A stretch of 40,714 nt of DNA from a virus, in the UHGV virus genome UHGV-2188828, one strand, 5' to 3'. Below are positions 3,203 to 40,714 of this stretch, piece by piece. Below the pieces are notes generated by a model. The model saw only the letters and a list, made by a program, of their open reading frames with translations, was not told where the DNA came from and made no database searches. Position 1 is the stretch's first letter. Each line of letters opens with the position of its first letter. A program made the position numbers and the translations under genes.

Positions 3203-6200
3203 TTGAGTGAAACTATAAGAAAAGTTAGTACTATTTTTACAATAGATGATAACGAGCATAATAAAAAACTTAAAGAATTAAATGCACAGTATAAACTTAC
3301 TCAAAGTGAAATAAAACTTGCTGGAGAAAGATTAAATCAATTTGGGAAGACAACAAATGATTTAAAGTATAAGGAATCTGCTTTAACTAAGCAAACAGAA
3401 ACTTTAAGAAGTAAAATTAATGTTTATAAGGACAGTATAGAAAAAGCTAGTAAAAAAGCAGAAGAAAATAATAAGAAACTTCAAGAGTTGAAAACTACAA
3501 AGGCGAGTTTGCAAAAAGAGTATAAAGAAGCAGTAAAACTTTATGGTGCAGAATCTGAACAAGCTAAAAACTTAAAGCAATCTTTAGATGAAGTCAGTAA
3601 GGAATATATAGAACAAAAAGCTGTAGTTGATAAAAACATAAACACTGTAAACAAACATAAAACTAAGCTTAATGAAACCGAAGCACAACTAGCTAAAGTA
3701 CAGGGAGAACTTAAAAGGACAACTCTAGAATTGGAAAAACAAAACTCTAAATGGATAAAGGCTAGTGAAAGTCTTAAACAAGCTGGGGATAAAATTTCTA
3801 ATTTTGGCACAAAAGCAAGTAAAGTTGGTGGAACTTTAACCAAGACAGTAACTTTACCAGTTGTTGCAATGGGAGCAGCCGCAGTAAACGCTCAAGTCCA
3901 ATGGGAAAGTGCATTTGCTGGGGTTAAAAAGACAGTAAACGGAACTTCGGAGCAAATTGCGGCACTAGAGCAAGGAATAAAAGATATGTCTTTAACACTT
4001 CCATCAAGTGCAGAAGATATTGCTGCAGTAGCAGAATCAGCTGGGCAATTAGGTATTCAAACAGATAATATTCTAGGTTTTACAAAAACCATTATAGACC
4101 TTAGTAATGCGACTAATTTAGTAGGAGAAGAAGGAGCAAGCCAACTTGCTAAGTTTGCTAACATCACACAAATGTCTCAAAAGAACTTTGATAGATTAGG
4201 AAGTACGATAGTAGCACTGGGAAATAATAGTGCAACAACAGAAGCAGATATCGTTGCAATGGCTACGAGAATAGCAGGTGCTGGTAAACAAGTTGGAATG
4301 ACAGAAGCTAATATTATGTCATTTGCAGCTGCCTTATCTAGTGTAGGAATTGAAGCCGAAGCAGGTGGTTCGAGTTTTTCTAAAGTTATGTTGGAAATGC
4401 AAATGGCTATACAAAGTGGTTCTGAATCAGTATCAGATTTTGCAAAAGTAGCTGGAATGTCAACCAAAGATTTTGCGGAAAAATTTAAAAATGATGCTAC
4501 AGGAGCATTAATAGCATTTATAAACGGATTAGGAAAATTAGATAATAAGGCAATAGTACTAGACAAATTAGGTTTTAGTGAAATAAGAGTAAGAGATTCG
4601 TTATTAAGAGCAAGTAGTGCTGGAGATTTATTTAACAAAACTATTGAGTTAGGTTCTAAGGCTTGGGAAGAAAATACCGCTTTAACAAATGAAGCTAACC
4701 AACGATATGGAACTACAGAAAGTCAGATTAAAATAACTAAAAATGAAATTATGAATTTAGCTAGGGAAATAGGAGTTGAATTACTTCCAACAATTAAAGA
4801 CGGACTAATAATGGTTAAAGATTTAATAGAGAAGTTTAATAATTTAAGTCCAGCAACTAAAGAAAATATAATAAAATTTGCTGGATTGAGTGCAGTGCTA
4901 GGACCAGTTATAGGAGGGGTTGGAAAGCTTGCTCAAGGTTTTGGTGGAATTTTAAAATTAACAGGTAAACTTTCTAAAGGATTAGGAGCAGCTAAGGTGG
5001 CAACTGAAACTGTAGGTGCGGCAGCAAGTGTAGCTGGAGGTGCTACTGGAGTAGCTGGACTTGCTAGCTCTTTGGGTGGAGTTGCTTTAGCGGCAGCACC
5101 ATATGTGGCAGCAGGGGCAGCAATAGCTGGAGCAGGATATGCAATTTACAAGGGATTGAATAAAGAAGTTATTCCAGAAGTTGATTTGTTCGCCGATAAA
5201 GTTGAGTATACCGCTAATTCTGTTACTAACTCAAGTAATTATATGACTGCTGGGGTAACTACTACAGTAACCAAAATAAGTGAAGCTACAAAGGAAGCAG
5301 TAGGGGCATATATAGAATTAGATGATAGTGCTAGAAATGAAGTGCAAAGCCTTTATATTAACTCAACAACCATTTCAGAACAGATAAAGACTGATATGTC
5401 TACTAAGTTTAACGAAATGGCTACACAAGTTATACAAGGCTATGAGAAACAGAAAAATGAAAGTACTAACCAACTTCAAGAAATGTTTTCTATCCAAAGT
5501 AGTTTAACTGCGGAAGAACAAGCAAATGTTTTATTAAACAACGGAAACTATTACGAAAATAAGAAGCTCCAAACACAAGAATATGAAAATCAAATTAATC
5601 AAATTTTAAATAATGCTAGTCAACAAAAAAGAGCATTAACACAAGATGAAGTTACTCAAATAACTTCATTACAAAATCAAATGCGGCAAAATGCAGTAAA
5701 TGCTCTAAGCCAAAATGAAATAGAAGCACAGGTTATTTTGCAAAGGATGAAAGATTATGATAGTAGAATAACTGCAGAACAGGCTTCTGAACATATTAGG
5801 AAACTTAACGAGAGTAGAGATAATGCTATAAATATAGCCAATGATGAATATGAAAAAAGAATTGCAGCGATAATTAGGCTTAGAGATGAAGCTGGAGCAA
5901 TAACTGCGGAACAAGCTGACAAAATGATTGAAGATGCTAAAAGGCAACGTGATGGAGTTGTTGAACAAGCTGAACTTACTCGTGATGAAGCTGTTGATAA
6001 GATTTTCCGAATGAATGAAGAACTACAAAAAAATATAGACGTTTCTAGTGGAGAAATTATAAGCACTTGGCAAAGGCTTTTTGGAACTTGGGACAAATGG
6101 GAACCTAAGACTAAGTTTGCTACAGTACAATATAGCGAAAGGGTAAAAGGTGGGCTTACTCAACAAGCCTATGCTTTAGGAACAAACTATTTCCAAGGTG

Positions 6201-6481
6201 GATTAACAGCTATAAATGAAAAGGGATATGAAGTTGTTGAACTTCCAAGAGGAAGTAAAGTTAAAAACCATTTACAAAGTGAAAATATGATAAAAGATAC
6301 TGCCTTAAAAACTGCCAAAGCACTATTAGGAGAGTTAAATAATGCAGATGGGGAAGTTATAGTTAATGTTTATGTTGGTGGAAAAGAGCTTAAGTCTGAT
6401 ATTACAAAAGAGGTTATAAAAACTGTAAATAGAAGTAGTAAAAATTATAGTAAAACGAAAGGAGTAATGGCGTTTGGATAA
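3203..6481 (+). CDS. tape measure protein
   Basis: 1092 aa, TTG start after RBS AAAGGAGGGG. It has N-terminal coiled-coil repeats, a central hydrophobic Gly/Ala-rich segment, and a Q/N-rich coiled coil. Confidence 0.9.
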   Translation: MSETIRKVSTIFTIDDNEHNKKLKELNAQYKLTQSEIKLAGERLNQFGKTTNDLKYKESALTKQTETLRSKINVYKDSIEKASKKAEENNKKLQELKTTKASLQKEYKEAVKLYGAESEQAKNLKQSLDEVSKEYIEQKAVVDKNINTVNKHKTKLNETEAQLAKVQGELKRTTLELEKQNSKWIKASESLKQAGDKISNFGTKASKVGGTLTKTVTLPVVAMGAAAVNAQVQWESAFAGVKKTVNGTSEQIAALEQGIKDMSLTLPSSAEDIAAVAESAGQLGIQTDNILGFTKTIIDLSNATNLVGEEGASQLAKFANITQMSQKNFDRLGSTIVALGNNSATTEADIVAMATRIAGAGKQVGMTEANIMSFAAALSSVGIEAEAGGSSFSKVMLEMQMAIQSGSESVSDFAKVAGMSTKDFAEKFKNDATGALIAFINGLGKLDNKAIVLDKLGFSEIRVRDSLLRASSAGDLFNKTIELGSKAWEENTALTNEANQRYGTTESQIKITKNEIMNLAREIGVELLPTIKDGLIMVKDLIEKFNNLSPATKENIIKFAGLSAVLGPVIGGVGKLAQGFGGILKLTGKLSKGLGAAKVATETVGAAASVAGGATGVAGLASSLGGVALAAAPYVAAGAAIAGAGYAIYKGLNKEVIPEVDLFADKVEYTANSVTNSSNYMTAGVTTTVTKISEATKEAVGAYIELDDSARNEVQSLYINSTTISEQIKTDMSTKFNEMATQVIQGYEKQKNESTNQLQEMFSIQSSLTAEEQANVLLNNGNYYENKKLQTQEYENQINQILNNASQQKRALTQDEVTQITSLQNQMRQNAVNALSQNEIEAQVILQRMKDYDSRITAEQASEHIRKLNESRDNAINIANDEYEKRIAAIIRLRDEAGAITAEQADKMIEDAKRQRDGVVEQAELTRDEAVDKIFRMNEELQKNIDVSSGEIISTWQRLFGTWDKWEPKTKFATVQYSERVKGGLTQQAYALGTNYFQGGLTAINEKGYEVVELPRGSKVKNHLQSENMIKDTALKTAKALLGELNNADGEVIVNVYVGGKELKSDITKEVIKTVNRSSKNYSKTKGVMAFG

Positions 6482-7166
6482 TTATTATATTATTTTCAAT
6501 GAAAAAACAAATGTAGATTTTAATTTAAAAATTCCTAAAAGAGTATCTAAGCCAGCTCCCATTATGAACTTTGAAGAAAAGCCAGTTAGAGGGGGGAAGA
6601 CACTTTATGTAGAAAAAGGATATAGAGATATAGAGATATCTGTTGAGTTTAACTTTAAAACTAATACTACTTGGGATTTAGATTTTAGAAGTATAAAGAA
6701 GTGGCTAGTGAATTTCAAGGATAATAAGCTAATCTTTAGTGATGATATTGAAGTATTCTATAGGGTTAATAAAGTTGTTATATCTAGTTCGGAAAGACTT
6801 TTGAAAAGAACAGGAAAGTTTATAGTAACCTTTGTTTGTGATCCATATGTTTACTTATCTGATGGGGGATATGAAATAGAGATAGAGGATTATATTTATA
6901 ATGATTATCTAGAGAGTAGACCTATTTACAGAATTGTCGGAGAAGGATTTTTAACATTAGCAGTAAATGAAAATGCTGTAAAAATAAATGTTGGTCAAGA
7001 AGTTATAATAAATACAGAATTAGGCTTAACGTATAGGGATGGAATAATCAATAATGTATCATTAGATGGTAATTATGAAGATTTATATCTAGTAGAAGGT
7101 GACAATAATTTTAAATGGAGTGGAGACTTTAAAATATATGTAACTCCTAATTGGAGATGTTTATAA
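6474..7166 (+). CDS. distal tail protein (Dit-like)
   Basis: 230 aa immediately after the tape measure gene, overlapping its stop. Confidence 0.6.
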   Translation: MDNYYIIFNEKTNVDFNLKIPKRVSKPAPIMNFEEKPVRGGKTLYVEKGYRDIEISVEFNFKTNTTWDLDFRSIKKWLVNFKDNKLIFSDDIEVFYRVNKVVISSSERLLKRTGKFIVTFVCDPYVYLSDGGYEIEIEDYIYNDYLESRPIYRIVGEGFLTLAVNENAVKINVGQEVIINTELGLTYRDGIINNVSLDGNYEDLYLVEGDNNFKWSGDFKIYVTPNWRCL

Positions 7167-9028
7167 TGATAGAAGTTTATTTAAAAACTAATAAAAATTA
7201 TGAAATGAACGGAGAGATGACTTTAGAGCCTTCTAGTTGTATTTACAAAAATAAAGAATACCTTCTAACAATAGAGCATCCATTTGATAAGCTTGAAAGA
7301 TGGAAATACTTAGATTATGAAAATGTTATAAAAACTGAAGGGAAGCTTTACAGAATTTTTAATGTTGTAAAGTCTTTAGATTATATAACTGCTTATGCCA
7401 GACCTATTTTCTTTGATTTAATAGATACAATATTACTTGATGTAAGACCAACTAATAAAACAGGGCAACAAGCTTTAGAAGAGATTTTAAAAGGTACAGG
7501 GTTTAAGGCACATAGCAATATATCAACTCTTAATACTGCTTATTACATTAGAAAAAATATAGTTGAAGCTATTCTTGGCAACGATGATAATTCTTTTTTA
7601 AACCGCTGGGGTGGAGAGATTTACTTAGATAATTTTGATGTTTATATTAATGATAAAATTGGAGCTGATAATGGGGTAAGGATTGAGTTTGGATATAATC
7701 TTAATGAAATAGAAGAGGATATAAATATCGAAGAAGTTGCTACAAGAATAATTCCTATGGGATTTGATGGATTAATGTTAGAAGGTGATACTCCATGGAT
7801 AGATAGTCCACTGATTGAGAAGTATGTTAATCCTAAAATGCGAGTTGTTAAGTTCGATGATGTTAAGGTTAAAGAATCTGAAACAGATGAAGAGGGATTT
7901 AACACTATAGAAGAAGCTAGAGCAGAACTTATAAAGCGTTGTAATAAACTTTACGAGGAAGGGATAGATAAGCCACAAGTTAATTATAAGATAGACATGA
8001 TTAACTTGGCCAATACTACAGCGTATAAAAATTATATAGATCTTGTTAAAGTAGGTGAGGGTGATACAGTAACTTGTTACGTTAAAGCTTTGGATATAGA
8101 TGTAAAAGCTAGAGTCATCGACTTTCAAAAGGATCATGTAACAGGGGAATATATAAGCATTGAATTAGGAAGTATTCAATCTGATTTTTTCAATAAACAA
8201 GCTGATATTCAAAATAAAGTTGATTCTATTTTAAATGGTAATGGTACTATTAAAGGAGATAAGATAAGCGGTGTTATAAATGCTTTAGATACTAAATTTA
8301 AAGCCTTAAGAGATGTAGCTCAACCACAAGAAGTGAGAGCGATGATATTTGAGGATAGAGTAGAAGATAGTCCTACATTTGGATGTTTAGCAATAGGTAC
8401 AATGGGATTTGAGATAGCAAGTTCTTTCAAAGCTGGTACAAAAGAATGGGATTTTAGAACATTTGGAACCGGTAAGGGCTTTGTAGCAGATTGTATAATG
8501 ACAGGGGCTTTAAAAAGTTTAAATGGAAATACAAATATAGATTTAGACAATGGTAAAGTTAAAATTAAAAGTGGTGGCTTTATCGGAAGTGATTCATGTT
8601 TTTGGGATTTGGACAAGCAACAGATAAGTGGTAAAAATCTTTTAATGGATCTACAAAATGGATTTACAAAATGGATACATGAAACTGATGGGTACACAGA
8701 AGTTAATGGGGAAGGATTTTTTAGAAATGGTAGACCATATCATAATTTAATTACAGCTGGCACTGGTGTTAGTGGTGGATTAGCTCCTAAAAAGGTACGA
8801 GTACAGTTACCAAATGAATTTAAGAATAAGGATTTTAAAGTTGTGTGTCAAATGGTAGATACTCAGGGAGGAGAAGTTGAAGAGTACCTTAAAAGAGTGC
8901 ATTTAAGTTGGGGGAATATAAATAAGGCTAATGCTACTTTTGAAGTAACTGGATATTGGACTGCTAAACTTAACCAATTTGAAAACGAAAAGGAACTACA
9001 GTGGGGGTATATAGCTATAGGAGGTTAA
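7166..9028 (+). CDS. tail-associated endopeptidase / Tal-like tail tip protein
   Basis: The N-terminus MIEVYLKTNKNYEMNGEMTLEPSS...EHPFDKLERW is typical of the phage endopeptidase-tail family. ATG 7166 lies 9 nt after RBS GGAG, and the six-frame track starts earlier at TTG 7151. Confidence 0.7.
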   Translation: MIEVYLKTNKNYEMNGEMTLEPSSCIYKNKEYLLTIEHPFDKLERWKYLDYENVIKTEGKLYRIFNVVKSLDYITAYARPIFFDLIDTILLDVRPTNKTGQQALEEILKGTGFKAHSNISTLNTAYYIRKNIVEAILGNDDNSFLNRWGGEIYLDNFDVYINDKIGADNGVRIEFGYNLNEIEEDINIEEVATRIIPMGFDGLMLEGDTPWIDSPLIEKYVNPKMRVVKFDDVKVKESETDEEGFNTIEEARAELIKRCNKLYEEGIDKPQVNYKIDMINLANTTAYKNYIDLVKVGEGDTVTCYVKALDIDVKARVIDFQKDHVTGEYISIELGSIQSDFFNKQADIQNKVDSILNGNGTIKGDKISGVINALDTKFKALRDVAQPQEVRAMIFEDRVEDSPTFGCLAIGTMGFEIASSFKAGTKEWDFRTFGTGKGFVADCIMTGALKSLNGNTNIDLDNGKVKIKSGGFIGSDSCFWDLDKQQISGKNLLMDLQNGFTKWIHETDGYTEVNGEGFFRNGRPYHNLITAGTGVSGGLAPKKVRVQLPNEFKNKDFKVVCQMVDTQGGEVEEYLKRVHLSWGNINKANATFEVTGYWTAKLNQFENEKELQWGYIAIGG

Positions 9029-13208: not shown

Positions 13209-13245
13209 TAAGTTATAATAAAAAAGCTATACTTACAAAATAAAA

Positions 13246-13290
13246 AGAGCGATTAATCACAATAGGGGAGGATTAATCGCTCTTTTTGTT
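13246..13290 (+). terminator. rho-independent terminator after the lysis module
   Basis: 13-bp stem AGAGCGATTAATC...GATTAATCGCTCT followed by TTTTTGTTT. Confidence 0.7.
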
Positions 13291-13481
13291 TATATATGGG
13301 TTCAGGAGTATTAATTTAATTAAAACTAATACTGGTTTATTATATCAATTACAAAATAGCATAAAAATGGAAGGTAGTCAATAAATTCACTCTAATTATG
13401 TCGTAAATAGGGTTGATTTATAAATGTTATATTTATCTAAGTATTTGGTTATACTTATAAATAGCATTGTACTATACTTAT

Positions 13482-13527
13482 AAAAAGGCAGTAGGTAGGG
13501 AGTAATCCTTATCTGCTGCCTTTTTTG
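13482..13527. terminator. second, bidirectional terminator-like hairpin (AAAAAGGCAG...CTGCCTTTTTT)
   Basis: GC stem flanked by an A-run and a T-run. No ORF lies between the two terminators. Confidence 0.5.
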
Positions 13528-13646
13528 TTTGGTGGACAAATTTACCATATATATTGTAAAATAAAATTGTTCAAATATATTATTAAGATTTAAGAAAAGA
13601 TATATTCATAGTCATTAAAGAATATGCTAAATCATAGGAGGGTAAC

Positions 13647-14579
13647 ATGAGAAAAAATATCGTATCATTTTTAAATATGAAGGGTGGAGTGTGTAAAACA
13701 ACGTTATGTAAAGAAATGGCATTATATTTATCAGAAGAAGAAAATAAAAAAGTTTTAGTAATTGATATAGATCCACAAGCTAATTGTACACATTCATTTT
13801 TTGAAAAATTTAAAATAAAAGATAGATATAAAAAAAATAGTAAGTATAACGAACAATACGTTCAAGAAAAAGAAATAGTTACTTTAGATGATAACTTAGG
13901 AATACCATCAATACAAAAGATATTTACTTCTAATAGAACAATTTTTAAGAGTTTAAAGAAAGAGGACGTTATATGTGAATTAAATGATAATCTACATATT
14001 ATACCAGGTGATTTAAATACTGTTTTTATGGAAAGGAATGCAGGTGGACAAGCAGAGCAAGCATTAGTTAATTTTATAAGAAATTTAAAATTGAAAGAAT
14101 TTTATGATTATATCTTAATTGATTGTCCTCCGACATATTCATTTTATACTGTTTCAGCTATATTAGCATCAGATTTCTATTTAGTACCGTTAGTGCCGGA
14201 TATGTATTCGATATTAGGGTTAGATTTATTAGAGAAGGTAGTTAAAGATATGAGAGAAATACATGCCACACATTTTGAATATAGAAATATAGAGAATTTG
14301 GGTGTGGTATTTACTAAAATACCTGTCTCAGAGAAAGGTAGTGAAGGTGTATTAATTAGGAATATGGAAATTGTAAAAAAAGCAAAAACTTTTGAAGGAT
14401 TATATTTTTTTGAAAATAGTTTTAAGAGGGCAGTAAAAATGGAGGTTTTGAAATTAGAAACTTTCATTTTAGATAGAGAAGACACTGACTTGAGAGAAAG
14501 TCTAAGAGGGATTTGTGAAGAATTCATTAGTAGGGTAGGTGTATATAATGATAAATATGATGGAGAAACAAGCAATTAA
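13647..14579 (+). CDS. ParA/MinD-family (deviant Walker A) ATPase
   Basis: NMKGGVCKTT is a KGGxxK[ST] deviant Walker A. VLVIDIDPQAN and ILIDCPPT are ParA/Soj-like motifs. 310 aa with an extended C-terminus, and very low GC. Confidence 0.8.
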   Translation: MRKNIVSFLNMKGGVCKTTLCKEMALYLSEEENKKVLVIDIDPQANCTHSFFEKFKIKDRYKKNSKYNEQYVQEKEIVTLDDNLGIPSIQKIFTSNRTIFKSLKKEDVICELNDNLHIIPGDLNTVFMERNAGGQAEQALVNFIRNLKLKEFYDYILIDCPPTYSFYTVSAILASDFYLVPLVPDMYSILGLDLLEKVVKDMREIHATHFEYRNIENLGVVFTKIPVSEKGSEGVLIRNMEIVKKAKTFEGLYFFENSFKRAVKMEVLKLETFILDREDTDLRESLRGICEEFISRVGVYNDKYDGETSN

Positions 14580-14943
14580 CAAAATTAAGAAAATACATAA
14601 TTTAAAAGATGTGGAGTATATTAAAGGTGAACTGTATTCTATATTTTCAATTCTTATTTTTTCTAAAAAATGTTTTTCGAAAAATATTGATATAAAAGTA
14701 TTCTTAGAAAAATTTAATATGAGATTTAAAGACTATGTATATGTTTCTAGACCTAATATTTTATCAAGAGTTTTAAGAGAAATCCAAAAAGCAGATGAAA
14801 CAAGTATACGAAATATAGTAAAAATGCTACTTGATGAAATACATTATGAAAAAGAAGAGTTAAAAGAAATAAATAAAAAAAGTGAAAGTGAAAATTATTT
14901 ATTAGGAATTTTAAATAGGTATACGAGAAATGACAAAAAGTAA
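14548..14943 (+). CDS. hypothetical protein; middle gene of the ParA-like cassette
   Basis: ATG 14548 lies 7 nt after AGGTG and overlaps the ParA-like stop; the six-frame track starts at GTG 14539. Very low GC, and I recognise no motif. Confidence 0.5.
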   Translation: MINMMEKQAINKIKKIHNLKDVEYIKGELYSIFSILIFSKKCFSKNIDIKVFLEKFNMRFKDYVYVSRPNILSRVLREIQKADETSIRNIVKMLLDEIHYEKEELKEINKKSESENYLLGILNRYTRNDKK

Positions 14944-15613
14944 TAGTGATGAATATAAAGATTTTTTGAAAATGTATATACCAAAGTCATATTTTATTAA
15001 CAGTATGACTAAAAACATTTATTCAAGAATTACTGAAAATTTAGTAGTAACTGAAATATTTAAAAGTTATATTAATGAATGTGAATTAGAGTGTTATATA
15101 GAGTTTTTAGAGAACTACAAAAATAAATATAATAAGCTATTGTTATATTTGGGAATTAATGATTATGAATCTGTAACTTATTGTATAAGGAGCTTAATTG
15201 AAAATTTGTTAAAATTTATATATTCAATTTATATAATTGAGTTAAAAGAAAATATAGAAATGTTTAGCTATAGAAATATAAAAGATGAATTAATAGAGTT
15301 CAGTAAAAACGGTTTGGAAATTAATATGGAATTGATTTCTAAGTTGTTTAGTATTTACGGGGAGTATTCTAAGGTTATTCATGGGAAGGAAAATACTAAA
15401 GTATCAATAGAATACATAGTAGATATAATTGAAAATAAAAATGATAAATTAAATAATATAGATCAAATTTTATTGAAAATAATTAATATTTATGAAGATA
15501 TAATGATTGATATACTAAAAATTGAATATTTAAGTACAAGTGATTTGATAAATTTAAAAAAAATGTTAAGCAAAAAAAGGTTTGATAGATTCCAAAATAT
15601 TATAAAAGCGTAA
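14930..15613 (+). CDS. hypothetical protein; distal gene of the ParA-like cassette
   Basis: 227 aa overlapping the upstream gene by 14 nt. Extremely AT-rich, and followed by tandem terminators. Confidence 0.55.
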   Translation: MTKSNSDEYKDFLKMYIPKSYFINSMTKNIYSRITENLVVTEIFKSYINECELECYIEFLENYKNKYNKLLLYLGINDYESVTYCIRSLIENLLKFIYSIYIIELKENIEMFSYRNIKDELIEFSKNGLEINMELISKLFSIYGEYSKVIHGKENTKVSIEYIVDIIENKNDKLNNIDQILLKIINIYEDIMIDILKIEYLSTSDLINLKKMLSKKRFDRFQNIIKA

Positions 15614-15639
15614 AAATAATTCTTATAATAAAAAATTCT

Positions 15640-15681
15640 AAGCTAGTAGGTAAGAGAAATCTTATTTACTAGCTTTTTTAT
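15640..15681 (+). terminator. rho-independent terminator after the cassette
   Basis: AGCTAGTA...TACTAGCT stem followed by TTTTTT. Confidence 0.65.
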
Positions 15682-15744
15682 GTATAAAATTTAAATAGCA
15701 GATAATACTATAAATGTGTTCAGTTATTAATATCTAAATAAAGA

Positions 15745-15781
15745 GGACTAGATTAATTATAAAGTTAATCTAGTCCTTTTT
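15745..15781 (+). terminator. second tandem terminator
   Basis: GGACTAGATTAA-ttataaag-TTAATCTAGTCC followed by TTTT. Confidence 0.6.
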
Positions 15782-15994
15782 GATGTACAAAAAAATAATG
15801 TAATTTATATCTAGAGCCCTCATTAATATTATAGCATGAATAAAGAGTTTGTTGAATATAAAAATACTAGGATATTAGCCATACCCTAGTCTTAAAATTT
15901 GCAATTAATATAACAAAACAATGATTAGATTTAATATTATTTGATAATAATAAAAAATATTGAAATAATAAATAGTATCAAAATTAATAATTAA

Positions 15995-16030
15995 ATAAAA
16001 AAGCACCCAGGGCAATCTAGGTGTTTTTTG
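15995..16030. terminator. bidirectional terminator at the 3' end of the minus-strand small-gene operon
   Basis: CACCCAG-ggcaat-CTAGGTG stem with an A-run upstream and T6 downstream. Confidence 0.5.
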
Positions 16031-16036
16031 CAGAAA

Positions 16037-16186
16037 TTAAATTTTAACTACATATTCATCTCTACCAATAGCTTTAACTTCTACATTATTAGATTTTAAT
16101 AAGTCAATAAACTTATCAATACTTTCTAAAGAAGAAGAATCCACATTTAAGATTAATTCATCTTTAGTGATTCTATCTATACTCAC
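16037..16186 (-). CDS. small hypothetical protein (about 49 aa, probable GTG start)
   Basis: (V)SIDRITKDELILNVDSSSLESIDKFIDLLKSNNVEVKAIGRDEYVVKI, preceded by AGGGGGG. Below the track length cutoff, and the start is uncertain. Confidence 0.35.
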   Translation of the reverse strand: MSIDRITKDELILNVDSSSLESIDKFIDLLKSNNVEVKAIGRDEYVVKI

Positions 16187-16273
16187 AATATGATCCCCCC
16201 TAGAAGTAAATTAAAGTATAACATTATAATGTATTATATCATAACAATTTTTGAATAAAAAAGATACGCAAAG

Positions 16274-16423
16274 CTAACTACTCATCTTCTCTTTTAAATA
16301 CCATTCCTCTAATAACTTATTAACTAAAGTAGAAAGGCTTACCTGACCTTCATTCTCTATTAATTTAATTTGTACTTTCTTTTTTAAATCTTCTTCGATA
16401 TAAATAGTCGTCTTTTCTCTCAT
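16274..16423 (-). CDS. ribbon-helix-helix (CopG/Arc-like) small DNA-binding protein
   Basis: 49 aa MREKTTIYIEEDLKKKVQIKLIENEGQVSLSTLVNKLLEEWYLKEKMSS. It has an N-terminal beta-strand then two helices, typical of RHH antitoxins and repressors. RBS AGGTG is 6 nt upstream. Confidence 0.5.
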   Translation of the reverse strand: MREKTTIYIEEDLKKKVQIKLIENEGQVSLSTLVNKLLEEWYLKEKMSS

Positions 16424-16512
16424 ATATAACACCTCATAATAATTTTAGTAAGATATCATGATAATTTTATAAGATATCATTATGATGTTATACCGTTATG
16501 ACGTCATAAAAG

Positions 16513-16740
16513 TTAATAAGTATCATAAAAAAATAAAAAAACATCTACAGGATCCAGTTTTAGCTCTTTAGAAATTTTTCTAACAAATTCCATATTAACG
16601 TTGCTAAACTTACGATTTTCTATTCTGGAAAGATAACTTCTATCTACATTTAACTTTTTAGATAACTCTAATTGAGAGATGCCTAACTTTTTTCTCCTAT
16701 GTTTCAGCAAAGTGTACCACCAATATATAATTATAGACAA
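16513..16740 (-). CDS. XRE-family helix-turn-helix protein
   Basis: LKHRRKKLGISQLELSKKLNVDRSYLSRIENRKF is a classic HTH_3. The real start may be TTG at 16710 (MLKHRR...) after GGTGG. Confidence 0.55.
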   Translation of the reverse strand: MSIIIYWWYTLLKHRRKKLGISQLELSKKLNVDRSYLSRIENRKFSNVNMEFVRKISKELKLDPVDVFLFFYDTY

Positions 16741-16946
16741 TATTCAACAAGAAAAACAGGGAAAAATCTAACAATACACGAACGCTGTCGAAATGTTCAT
16801 GGTATGCACACTTTTTCGTGGTAAAATAAAGAGGAAGAGGGTTTTGTAGCTATAAAATATCTAATTCATATATAAAAAACGATTTGAATACCGAACGTTT
16901 GTTTGGTATAATTTATTTAAGAGTTTTGCAAGAGGGGAGAGTTAAT

Positions 16947-17066
16947 ATGAGCAGTAAATACATCAGGGGGACTAGCAAAAAAGAATTAAACACAGAAAAA
17001 TTGCTAAGATTAGAAAAAGATTTTTATAGGATATTAACTGAATTAAAAGATGGTATTTATGAATAA
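16947..17066 (+). CDS. small hypothetical ORF (39 aa)
   Basis: MSSKYIRGTSKKELNTEKLLRLEKDFYRILTELKDGIYE after RBS AGAGGGGAGAG. Its 3' end overlaps the left arm of the 48-bp palindrome. Confidence 0.3.
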   Translation: MSSKYIRGTSKKELNTEKLLRLEKDFYRILTELKDGIYE

Positions 17067-17096
17067 GAGATAATACTCTGATTCATAAATACCATC
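17049..17096. promoter_or_regulatory. 48-bp quasi-palindrome immediately downstream of the serine integrase gene: candidate attP core and/or bidirectional terminator
   Basis: GATGGTATTTATGAAT-aagagataatactctg-ATTCATAAATACCATC has perfect 16-bp arms and a 16-bp partly palindromic spacer. It lies between the convergent small ORF and the integrase gene. Confidence 0.45.
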
Positions 17097-17102
17097 ATAA
17101 AT

Positions 17103-18557
17103 TTAAAAAATTATCTTTATTTTTCCGCCTTTTCTGGAGTTGGGTTTAGGAAACCAAAGAATTTTATCAAGCATCAATTTTAACACTCTTTGCTTTTCAT
17201 TAACAGAGGTACATCTATTGAATTTTTCCCATAGGGATTTTACAGTTAGGATATTATTCATTTTAAAGCTATCATTAATTTTAATATCCATATCCGTTAA
17301 TTCGTTTTTTAAAGTTTCAATTTCTGTGTTGACGGAATTTATTTTATCAATAATAAGTCCTGAAACATTAGTAGGAACGAGAGCTAATTTTTCTATTAAC
17401 CCATTTAAAATAGCAGTTTGTTTTTTTATTTTATTAGAAATAGTTTTTTTCTGATCTATCAATCCAGAATTATCAACGGTTCCTATTTCTATCTCCCCAT
17501 CCACAACAGATCTAAGATAATCAATAACTAACTCTTCTAATTTATCTACAGGAATATTTCTTCCGCACTTACATTGCTTTCTGACTATATTTTTGCCGTG
17601 GGTCACATCTATTCTGTAGCTGGAGTTACAGTAACCACAATACACGCTTTGAGCAAGAAACGTCTTACTAGATATTCTTGGTTTTGGATCTATAGAGTTT
17701 TCCTTGATTAAAATTTGTGATTTAATAAAATCTTCTGCCGAGATTAATGGTGTATGTTTTGAAGTCGCTATTATTGTTTCATCTTTAAAGGAGTTTCTCA
17801 TAAGACTTGGGCCTTTTACATTATTGAATATTTGTAAACCTAATGATGAGAAATATTCAATAGTTTGTTCATTATATTCTGTATATACAGGATTAGTTAA
17901 TAATTTTTTTACGTTAACCCTGCTTAACTTGTAATTTAAATCATCTGATAACTTTTTGCTTATTTTTTCTAGGGAATAACCCTCCAATAACCATTTAAAA
18001 GCATATAAAGGAATGTGCTTTTTTGATTCATCAATTTGCAGATAAGGAACCTTTTTCCCGGCTACCTCCTCTTTTATAGATTTATATCCTACTGGTGAAT
18101 TACCTCCAGACCATTGCCCTAATTTTGCTAATTCTTTCTTGTTATCTATTACTCTGCTCCTTAGATTCTCTCTTTCTATTTCAGCAAAGTTTGCTATTAT
18201 ATACATCATCATTCTACCTAAAGGTGTGCTAGTATCGAATTGCTCGGTTACAGATAAAAATTTAACTTCATTTTTTTCAAACTTTTCATAGATCTTTATG
18301 AAGTCTATTACATTCCTGGCAATTCTATCTAACTTATATACTGCTACAATATCAAATTTTTTCATTCCAACCATCTTCATCATTCTGCTAAAAGATGGTC
18401 GGTTTGTATTTTTTCCACTAAATCCTTCATCTTCAAAAATTTCGAATTTGACACTCTTGCCACTAAAGTAGGATTTTATTATTTTAATTTGATTCTCTAT
18501 ACTCTCGCCCTTATCGGTTAAAACTGATTTTCTAGAATAAATTGCTACTCGTATCAT
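17103..18557 (-). CDS. large serine recombinase (phage integrase)
   Basis: 484 aa. MIRVAIYSRKSVLTDKGESIENQ is a resolvase-type catalytic N-terminus with the nucleophilic Ser. A recombinase domain, a Cys-rich zinc ribbon (CGYCNSSY...CKCGR) and a coiled coil follow. Confidence 0.9.
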   Translation of the reverse strand: MIRVAIYSRKSVLTDKGESIENQIKIIKSYFSGKSVKFEIFEDEGFSGKNTNRPSFSRMMKMVGMKKFDIVAVYKLDRIARNVIDFIKIYEKFEKNEVKFLSVTEQFDTSTPLGRMMMYIIANFAEIERENLRSRVIDNKKELAKLGQWSGGNSPVGYKSIKEEVAGKKVPYLQIDESKKHIPLYAFKWLLEGYSLEKISKKLSDDLNYKLSRVNVKKLLTNPVYTEYNEQTIEYFSSLGLQIFNNVKGPSLMRNSFKDETIIATSKHTPLISAEDFIKSQILIKENSIDPKPRISSKTFLAQSVYCGYCNSSYRIDVTHGKNIVRKQCKCGRNIPVDKLEELVIDYLRSVVDGEIEIGTVDNSGLIDQKKTISNKIKKQTAILNGLIEKLALVPTNVSGLIIDKINSVNTEIETLKNELTDMDIKINDSFKMNNILTVKSLWEKFNRCTSVNEKQRVLKLMLDKILWFPKPNSRKGGKIKIIF

Positions 18558-18958
18558 TTTTTTCCCTTCTTCTTATTTATTAAATGTTCTAGATCAGCTT
18601 TTATAGCTGAAACTATCAATTCCTCTATACTTCCCTCTGGAGCTTCAATTCTTAATTTATTGACATCATCAATAATATTTAATTCCAATATTTGTTCAAA
18701 AGCCCTTTGAATACACTTATATTCAATTCTGCTATTAACATAATCTTTTTCTTCCACACCGTAAAGCCAATACTCTTCTGGCAAACCACTAATAGAAACC
18801 AGTGAGTTTATAAAGTTTCTAGAAGGGCTTTTCTTATTATTTTCAATTTGTGAGTAATAACTTTTTTTAACACCTATTTTCTCCCCTAATTCTGTTTGGT
18901 TCAATCCTTTTTCGTTTCTAAATTTTTTTAATCTATCTGTAAAGTTCAAGATAATCAC
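18554..18958 (-). CDS. CI-like repressor (XRE HTH N-terminus)
   Basis: 134 aa. LKKFRNEKGLNQTELGEKIGVKKSYYSQIENNKKSPS is HTH_3. Divergent from a Cro-like gene, and overlaps the integrase start. Confidence 0.8.
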   Translation of the reverse strand: MIILNFTDRLKKFRNEKGLNQTELGEKIGVKKSYYSQIENNKKSPSRNFINSLVSISGLPEEYWLYGVEEKDYVNSRIEYKCIQRAFEQILELNIIDDVNKLRIEAPEGSIEELIVSAIKADLEHLINKKKGKK

Positions 18959-18977
18959 CTCATATATATTATAACAT

Positions 18978-19131
18978 AGTTTACAAAAATGTAAACTGTT
19001 TTTATTGGTGAAATTCTTTTTTGAAAATTCTTAGTAAAGTGTAGCAAATAGGAGCATTATGAATATAATTTCAATATACGACAAAATTCAATTAAAAAAC
19101 AAAGTTTACTAATTGGCAAACAAGGTTTACT
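18978..19131. promoter_or_regulatory. cI/cro divergent control region with repeated GTTTAC(A/T) half-sites
   Basis: Palindrome AGTTTACAaaaaTGTAAACT at 18978..18997. Direct repeats AGTTTACT (19103..19110) and GGTTTACT (19124..19131) lie upstream of cro. Confidence 0.45.
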
Positions 19132-19154
19132 ATTAAGGCAAGGAGGGACAAGCG

Positions 19155-19334
19155 ATGAACTTAAAAGAAATTCGACAAAACAAAGGGCTTAAGCAGTCTT
19201 TTGTAGCAGCAGAACTAGGAATTACAAGACAATGGTTTGCTAAATTAGAGCAAGGTAAAAAGCCGTTAAGTAAACTCCAAAAAGAAAAATTAGCTCAGAT
19301 TTTCAACATTTCATTAGAAAACTTTGATGAATAG
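19155..19334 (+). CDS. Cro-like HTH regulator (59 aa)
   Basis: MNLKEIRQNKGLKQSFVAAELGITRQWFAKLEQGKK... is an XRE HTH, preceded by RBS AGGAGGGA and divergent from cI. Below the track length cutoff. Confidence 0.65.
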   Translation: MNLKEIRQNKGLKQSFVAAELGITRQWFAKLEQGKKPLSKLQKEKLAQIFNISLENFDE

Positions 19335-19704
19335 GGGGAAGGTATATGCCAAACACTGAAAAAGATTTTTTTGATAAATTAAGGTTGTTTATAGAAAAAG
19401 AAAAAAATGAAAGGTGAAATTACAAATGAAGAAAAGGAAAGGATTTATAAAAAATTACTGAAAGATTATAACTTAGATGATTCTGATGAAATTGTTGTTG
19501 TTGGAGATAATAGCGAGAAGTTAGAGGAAAGATTAAGGTATATTGCAGAAAATGATATTTTATAAACTCTTGTTAAAAGGGCTGAATTGCCCATCAGAAA
19601 ACTAAACATATTTAATAAATGGTCAAGCTCTAGGAAATACGTAAAACCCACTAGAGACTAAGAGGGAGTATTGGAAAGTTAATTAAGTTTAAGGAGGACA
19701 AGTA

Positions 19705-40493: not shown

Positions 40494-40714
40494 ATGGCGT
40501 ATAAAAAGCAAACTTGGAACGATAACGATGTAATAACAAAGGCTAAATTAGATCATATAGAAGAAGGTATTGCAAGTATAGAACTTACTCCAGGACCTAA
40601 AGGAGAAACAGGTGCACAAGGACCAGCAGGACCACAAGGTGCTACTGGTGAAGCTGGACCACAAGGACCAGCAGGACCTACAGGACCTAAAGGAGAAACA
40701 GGTGCACAAGGACC
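40494..40714 (+). CDS. collagen-like (Gly-X-Y) structural protein, N-terminal part (continues past the window end, wrapping to 1..241)
   Basis: [62 protein letters not shown]... Confidence 0.65.

Follow-up and report, generated by a model that had tools for sequence, protein, structure and literature searches.

The stretch of viral DNA analysed here (UHGV virus genome UHGV-2188828; 40,714 nucleotides in full, hereafter the window) contains a 48-bp near-perfect palindrome that abuts the gene of a serine integrase, which raises the question of whether this palindrome is the site on which the integrase acts, a transcription terminator between two converging genes, or both. Comparison with related sequences from metagenomes suggests that it is very probably the attP of a temperate, uncultured gut Clostridium phage, and that the adjacent serine integrase would use it to insert the phage into a patatin-like phospholipase gene of the host (Table 1).

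Table 1. Features of the integration locus (window coordinates) and the alignments that define the two host-phage junctions.
Feature or aligned segment	Position	Strand	Identity	Basis
Conserved 39-aa ORF converging on int	16947..17066	+		ATG start at 16947
Predicted attP, two 24-bp half-sites, inverted	17049..17096			Sequence, chance statistics, split in lysogens
Integrase-distal half-site P, TATCTCTTATTCATAAATACCATC read outward	17049..17072	-		L009 junction, half-site table
Common core GATAATAC of attP and host attB	17069..17076			L009/L001 breakpoints, alignment
Inferred crossover dinucleotide AA (TT on integrase strand)	17072..17073			Geometry and L007/L017 base
Integrase-proximal half-site P', ATACTCTGATTCATAAATACCATC	17073..17096	+		Half-site table; junctions L001, L010, L011, L017, L007
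Large serine integrase, 484 aa	17103..18557	-		Pfam domains and invariant residues
HTH_3 repressor-like gene (cI type)	18554..18958	-		Pfam, PHROGs
L009 1-730, phage side	window 16347-17076		99.9%	blastn
L009 723-4071, host side	L005 3562-6909		96.5%	blastn
L001 2932-5566, phage side	window 19705-17069		91.6%	blastn
L001 5553-9125, host side	L005 3575-1		97.5%	blastn

The original prediction described perfect 16-bp arms around a partly self-complementary 16-bp centre, and this was confirmed from the sequence. The left arm GATGGTATTTATGAAT (17049-17064) and the right arm ATTCATAAATACCATC (17081-17096) are perfectly complementary, and the centre AAGAGATAATACTCTG (17065-17080) contains an inner 4-bp stem (AGAG/CTCT) with a 6-nt loop and one A/G mismatch. 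Divided instead into two halves of 24 bp, the arms match at positions 5-7 and 9-24, counted outward, around a central AA. The predicted distance of 7 bp from the integrase stop codon is correct as a difference between coordinates, 6 nt (17097-17102) lying between the two. Perfect arms of at least 16 bp within 20 nt were absent from all 200 sequences simulated from the window with a first-order Markov model (largest 14, mean 9.1), and the palindrome is thus not a product of chance. The window holds one other palindrome of this size, at 13242-13287 just 3' of the GH25 endolysin gene, with 17-bp perfect arms and flanks of A5 and T5; it has the appearance of a terminator acting in both directions. 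Another hairpin, of 20 pairs followed by a T-run, is found at 13482-13525.

Relatives were found by a protein search with the integrase, after which the contigs that encode them were fetched; the small ORF was also looked up by exact sequence. The integrases recovered in this way are 65–99% identical to that of the window, and all are in metagenome assemblies. Contig L008 equals the window across this region and is unintegrated, as are L003, with an integrase 99% identical, and L014-L016, with integrases 86% identical. The remaining integrases compared are those of L001/L002 (89%), L010 (85%), L011/L012 (66%) and L017 (65%), and that of L007, which is 483 aa in length. A megablast comparison of window positions 15500-19500 with deposited phages returned nothing near-identical, and single-sequence integrase scans of genome_contigs and viral_contigs found no relatives. 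When species-representative genomes were scanned with a 10-sequence profile, the integrases found were at most 39% identical (31–36% for the best full-length matches), too distant to inform on this site, and no named isolate lysogen with both ends on one contig was obtained. None of the contigs retrieved holds both prophage ends. The evidence as a whole is comparative and drawn from metagenome contigs; the integrase-side junctions come from relatives at most 89% identical in integrase, phages other than that of the window itself.

The integrase matches the Pfam families Resolvase (PF00239, 5e-35) and Recombinase (PF07508, 5.5e-8), and its match to Zn_ribbon_recom (PF13408, 5e-4) scores 20.7 bits, under the 25.3 cutoff. 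Residues R9, S11, C307, C310, C329 and C331 are invariant across 10 relatives, S11 being the catalytic serine and the four cysteines those of the zinc ribbon. The HTH_3 gene overlaps the start of int by 4 nt, an arrangement that is the same at all related loci, suggesting that the two genes are probably co-transcribed; early genes on the plus strand diverge from this repressor-like gene. On the far side of the palindrome from int there is a variable region, followed by the GH25 endolysin and tail genes, and this is the usual place of the attachment site in temperate siphovirus-like genomes. The G+C content of the window is about 30%.

The small ORF that converges on int reaches into the palindrome, with its last five sense codons inside the distal (left) arm and its stop codon (17064-17066) formed by the last base of that arm and the first two bases of the centre. 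L008 and L009 carry an identical copy and L003 and L014 a conserved one, and no Pfam or PHROGs match was found. The ORF has a promoter-like sequence of its own (TTGAAT-17-TATAAT, 16884-16912), the spacer of which contains an inverted repeat (16888-16909). Between the endolysin gene and attP, the window also contains a gene for a ParA-like ATPase (13647-14579; Pfam AAA_31/CbiA, phrog_164), beside which are two genes without known function (14539-14943 and 14930-15613). This partition-like cassette (13647-15613) is thus found in an integrating phage, and the same cassette occurs in L008. In L003 the variable region (5612-7646) holds, instead of this cassette, genes for a tyrosine recombinase of 335 aa and for an Ltp-like lipoprotein, so that this phage has two different recombinases, the tyrosine recombinase and its serine integrase.

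If the palindrome is attP, half of it should be joined to host DNA at each end of an integrated copy, and this is what we observed. At the small-ORF side, contig L009 follows the phage sequence through 17076 and continues into host DNA; at the integrase side, L001 follows the phage down to 17069 and then continues into host DNA, as part of a set of integrase-side junctions (L001/L002, L010, L011/L012, L017 and L007) in which the int-proximal arm is followed by a truncated patatin-like phospholipase gene. Half-site P' thus remains beside int in the prophage, and half-site P remains with the small ORF at the far prophage end. An intact palindrome in integrated copies would have spoken against the original prediction, but it was whole, between int and the small ORF, only in the window and in L008, L003 and L014-L016, all of them unintegrated. 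The breakpoints at 17069-17076 likewise answer the concern that the junctions might lie elsewhere, for example in 13290-13640. That region was considered as a junction and rejected: none of the junctions falls within it, and the hairpins that it contains, past the endolysin gene, resemble terminators.

The host genes past the truncated patatin gene differ among the contigs, and comprise DHHW, MBOAT, amino-acid permease and PolC genes in L001, L20, L35 and IF3 in L011, P5CR and S21 in L010, and YaaD and GH1 in L017 and L007. Thus L010, L011/L012, L017 and L007 represent three host gene contexts other than that of L001, and all break at the same Asp-Gly-Gly codons of patatin; five related integrase lineages share this target. 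In L009, the host genes that come after the small ORF encode an HTH_5/Nitro_FeMo-Co protein, a MerR-methyltransferase and a CHAP protein. A query with the N-terminal part of patatin found the intact gene, of 302 aa (P0121, 98% identical), on contigs L005/L006, where it lies in the same MBOAT-DHHW context as in L001. Because their upstream genes are those of L001 and their downstream genes those of L009, L005/L006 represent the empty site, at which attB in L005 reads TATATTGATGGTGGTATTGCTGATAATACACCTATACAGCCCGTTTATGG. Placed end to end, the host portions of L001 and L009 give the L005 sequence with no bases gained or lost, as predicted for conservative site-specific recombination. The identification of the palindrome as attP is thus supported both by junctions at its centre and by an empty patatin site.

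These junctions also bear on whether the recombinase could instead be a multimer-resolution or partition-associated resolvase of a phage-plasmid, with the palindrome as its res-like site. The ParA-like ATPase gene would suit such an element, and an 86-nt overlap of the window ends fits a circular molecule, but the prophages are joined to chromosomal genes (PolC, MBOAT, ribosomal proteins, IF3), the 484-aa protein has the architecture of a large serine integrase, unlike a small resolvase, and there is a single site rather than a multi-subsite res. Since chromosomal junctions exist, we rejected this explanation, which we consider scarcely credible. In this overlap, positions 40629-40714 at the end of the window repeat positions 5-90 within a collagen-like Gly-X-Y coding repeat, and the window thus probably represents a circular assembly of the unintegrated genome, cut inside a collagen-like gene.

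The position of the exchange can be narrowed further for the attP reading. The stretch GATAATAC is the only one common to the attP of the window and the host attB, and L009 positions 723-730 fall in both the phage and the host alignments; on the sequences compared, strand exchange must have been confined to this core, whose length is 8 bp in the window phage and 14 bp in the phage of L001. Midway along the 8-bp core lies the symmetry centre of the palindrome, which falls between 17072 and 17073. A serine integrase needs a non-palindromic central dinucleotide for polarity, and AA qualifies. In L007 and L017, two lysogens of the group with 65% identical integrases, the junction reads GATAAA, whereas Asn stands at this codon in each of the intact patatin homologues read (GATAAT in the three sequenced empty sites), indicating that the base after AA is of phage origin and that the exchange took place at AA or to the left of it. 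L009, for its part, sets the exchange to the right of the base preceding GAT. Together with the symmetry, these limits point to AA as the most likely crossover dinucleotide, and the data therefore fit the central crossover dinucleotide of the original prediction.

L010, L011, L017 and L007 have Val or Ser at the codon that precedes GATAA, where all eight intact homologues of patatin that were retrieved have Ala. Either the hosts differ there, or the exchange point is a few bases further left in those phages. A phage origin of the odd codon was rejected for the window-type phage, as L009 is phage sequence up to the core and L001 retains the host GCT; it may formally hold for the group with 65% identical integrases, for whose hosts no empty sites were found, the closest sequences retrieved being L043 and L044. 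Two short contigs, L004 and L013, end at the att core, as would be expected of a fork in the assembly graph if integrated and free forms coexisted in the sample.

We propose the following sequence of events for integration. A dimer of the large serine integrase would bind the two 24-bp half-sites of attP, and a second dimer would bind the host site in the patatin-like phospholipase gene that spans the catalytic Asp-Gly-Gly codons. The synapsed tetramer would then cut attP and attB with a 2-nt stagger, by analogy with the family probably at the central AA within GATAATAC, rotate, and religate the ends. The expected product is a prophage between two hybrid sites, one joining the int-proximal arm to the 5' part of patatin and the other joining the small-ORF arm to the 3' part. 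The comparison of contigs directly revealed both junction positions, the empty site, and a conservative exchange within the 8-bp core. Excision would presumably need a separate directionality factor (none was identified); the 39-aa ORF, by its position beside attP, might be a candidate. The int/attP/attB arrangement is of the standard large-serine-integrase type, with an adjacent integrase gene, a 48-bp structure of two half-sites, central breakpoints in lysogens, and an empty attB that shares a short core.

The half-sites, with positions numbered outward from the centre of the palindrome, offer a further view of how the integrase may recognize its targets. In the Listeria LI integrase, the zinc-ribbon domain reads attP positions 16-24, a copy of this motif is found 5 bp inward in attB, and the recombinase domain contacts the same inner positions of attP and attB (Rutherford et al., PMC3783163). 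In the phages compared here, CCATC occupies positions 20-24 in all but one of the 11 distinct attP arms, the exception being the left arm of L003, with CCATA. In the attB left arms, of which six distinct ones were read, CCATC always lies 5 bp nearer the centre, at positions 15-19. The inner motif A9-T10-n-C12 is present in every half-site read, left and right, in both attP and attB. Position 18 of attP varies jointly on both arms, being T in the window and C in L003 and L014, and the free-phage relatives (L003, L014-L016) show paired arm changes such as AAATACC to AAACACC. The attB left arm matches the window attP motif at 7 of 9 positions and the AACACCATC variant of the relatives at 8 of 9, whereas for the attB right arm the agreement with the shifted zinc-ribbon motif is limited to 3 of 9 positions, essentially C15-C16. 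The half-sites thus appear to agree in part with the published recognition model, the left attB arm fitting it and the right arm fitting poorly; the assignment of these motifs to integrase domains is carried over from the integrase family. In the attB left arm, CCATC is complementary to GAT-GG, which encodes the Asp-Gly of the catalytic Asp-Gly-Gly of patatin, suggesting that this phage group anchors its integration on codons that the host presumably cannot change.

The Listeria A118/LI system resembles this one in several respects. Its integrase has the same catalytic N-terminal domain, recombinase domain, and zinc ribbon with coiled coil; its attP likewise measures about 50 bp, with two inverted half-sites and a central dinucleotide; the distal motif at attP positions 16-24 recurs 5 bp inward in attB (PMC3783163), as seems to hold for the attB left arm here; and integration is within a protein-coding gene. 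The two differ in that the motif here is AAyACCATC and the target patatin, rather than comK as in Listeria, and in that only one attB arm here shows the shifted motif clearly. Integrases of Listeria phages in the phage collection are about 28% identical to that of the window. The nearest deposited phage integrases are those of the Clostridium phages vB_CpeS-CP51, phiCp-A and HM T and of the Terrisporobacter phage TPELB_ph1, which have related hosts and the same length and domain order; in a tblastn search of deposited phages the best integrase matches were 30–33% identical, a comparison of the integrases alone.

Both junctions lie at the centre of the palindrome, and this limits what a role in termination could explain. 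The original prediction had offered as its alternative a convergent-transcription terminator for int and the small ORF, which in its strict form would make the palindrome primarily a bidirectional intrinsic terminator and place the attachment site elsewhere. The RNA of the palindrome does fold into a strong hairpin on either strand (-26 kcal/mol; z = -5.9 and -7.4), CUUUUAAUUC follows it on the integrase strand, and the hairpins of relatives (-20 to -24 kcal/mol) show paired changes in the inner stem. However, a symmetric protein dimer predicts paired arm changes equally, the plus-strand tail AUAAAUUUAAAAAA is not a U-tract, the palindrome is absent from the list produced by a consensus terminator scan, and the stem, although stable, is A+T-rich, in contrast to the G+C-rich stems of rho-independent terminators. 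The structure is also not retained in the prophage, where the integrase-side hybrid site folds at just -10.6 kcal/mol (z = -1.15). Because integration destroys the hairpin, a terminator role cannot explain conservation of the site in the prophage, and given the weak fold of the hybrid, such a role is possible in the unintegrated genome only. Termination as the sole function is refuted by the junctions, and we regard this strict form as very unlikely; the predicted alternative thus fails for the prophage and may at most apply to the free phage.

It is conceivable, if somewhat doubtful, that the palindrome has two functions, serving as attP and also, in the circular unintegrated genome, as a hairpin that ends the int transcript and perhaps that of the small ORF. 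Integration would remove this terminator, and the repressor-int transcript could then enter the 5' fragment of patatin in antisense, while that of the small ORF could enter the 3' fragment. All of the evidence for attP applies equally to this possibility, and the hairpin energies, together with a short U-run on the int strand, are consistent with it, as is the finding of no other terminator-like hairpin between int and the small ORF. The arms of the window are also more perfect than those of its relatives (16/16 against 13–14/16), and a perfection of 16 bp seems to exceed what integrase binding alone would need. On the other hand, the U-tracts are weak in the window and in the relatives (3–4 U), and recognition of half-sites alone accounts fully for the symmetry.

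Returning to the palindrome as attP, its integration would leave the host with an altered enzyme. The patatin gene is cut after ...YIDGGIA, just past the catalytic Asp, and reading continues in frame into the phage arm as DNT(L/P/T)I..., which resembles the DNTPI of the host. The predicted patatin of lysogens is 199–213 aa in length, compared to 300–306 aa in intact homologues; it keeps the GxSxG serine and the DGG aspartate, and loses about 100 C-terminal residues. Prophage-like elements that interrupt genes and are excised by serine recombinases include SPbeta in spsM and skin in sigK. They share with the phages described here the location of a serine-recombinase element within a host coding sequence, from which precise excision would restore the gene. 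They differ in that nothing here suggests developmentally timed excision, and that the phospholipase has no known link to sporulation or competence. The insertion could nonetheless act as a reversible switch of the patatin-like phospholipase (active lysogeny), with an attP hairpin that terminates transcription only in the unintegrated genome, but we consider this improbable. If it were so, lysogens would make a shortened enzyme with both catalytic residues and excision would restore the full-length protein, and read-through of int and the small ORF would be tied to the state of integration.

The use of one conserved site by divergent integrases is consistent with previous work. Durrant et al. 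(2022, PMC10083194) describe diverse large serine recombinases that share one conserved site in a coding sequence, as in a prolyl isomerase and a Mg-chelatase-like gene. The phages compared here follow the same pattern: across several host species, integrases with as little as 65% identity insert at the same handful of codons in a single gene family. They differ in that their integrases come from metagenome assemblies only. Patatin has no occurrences in the main text of that study (PMC10083194), and our search of the literature available to us found no patatin-targeting serine integrase.

The accepted view of how serine integrases act is unchanged by these findings. They do provide a candidate recombination system, derived from sequence alone, that comprises an integrase, a 48-bp attP, an attB of about 40–50 bp, an 8-bp core and a probable AA crossover. 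The three attP variants and several attB variants, together with integrases of 65–99% identity, form a natural specificity series that could serve for working out the rules by which the zinc ribbon and the recombinase domain recognize DNA. For the biology of these phages and their hosts, the patatin-like phospholipase genes of gut Clostridium join the known targets of prophages.
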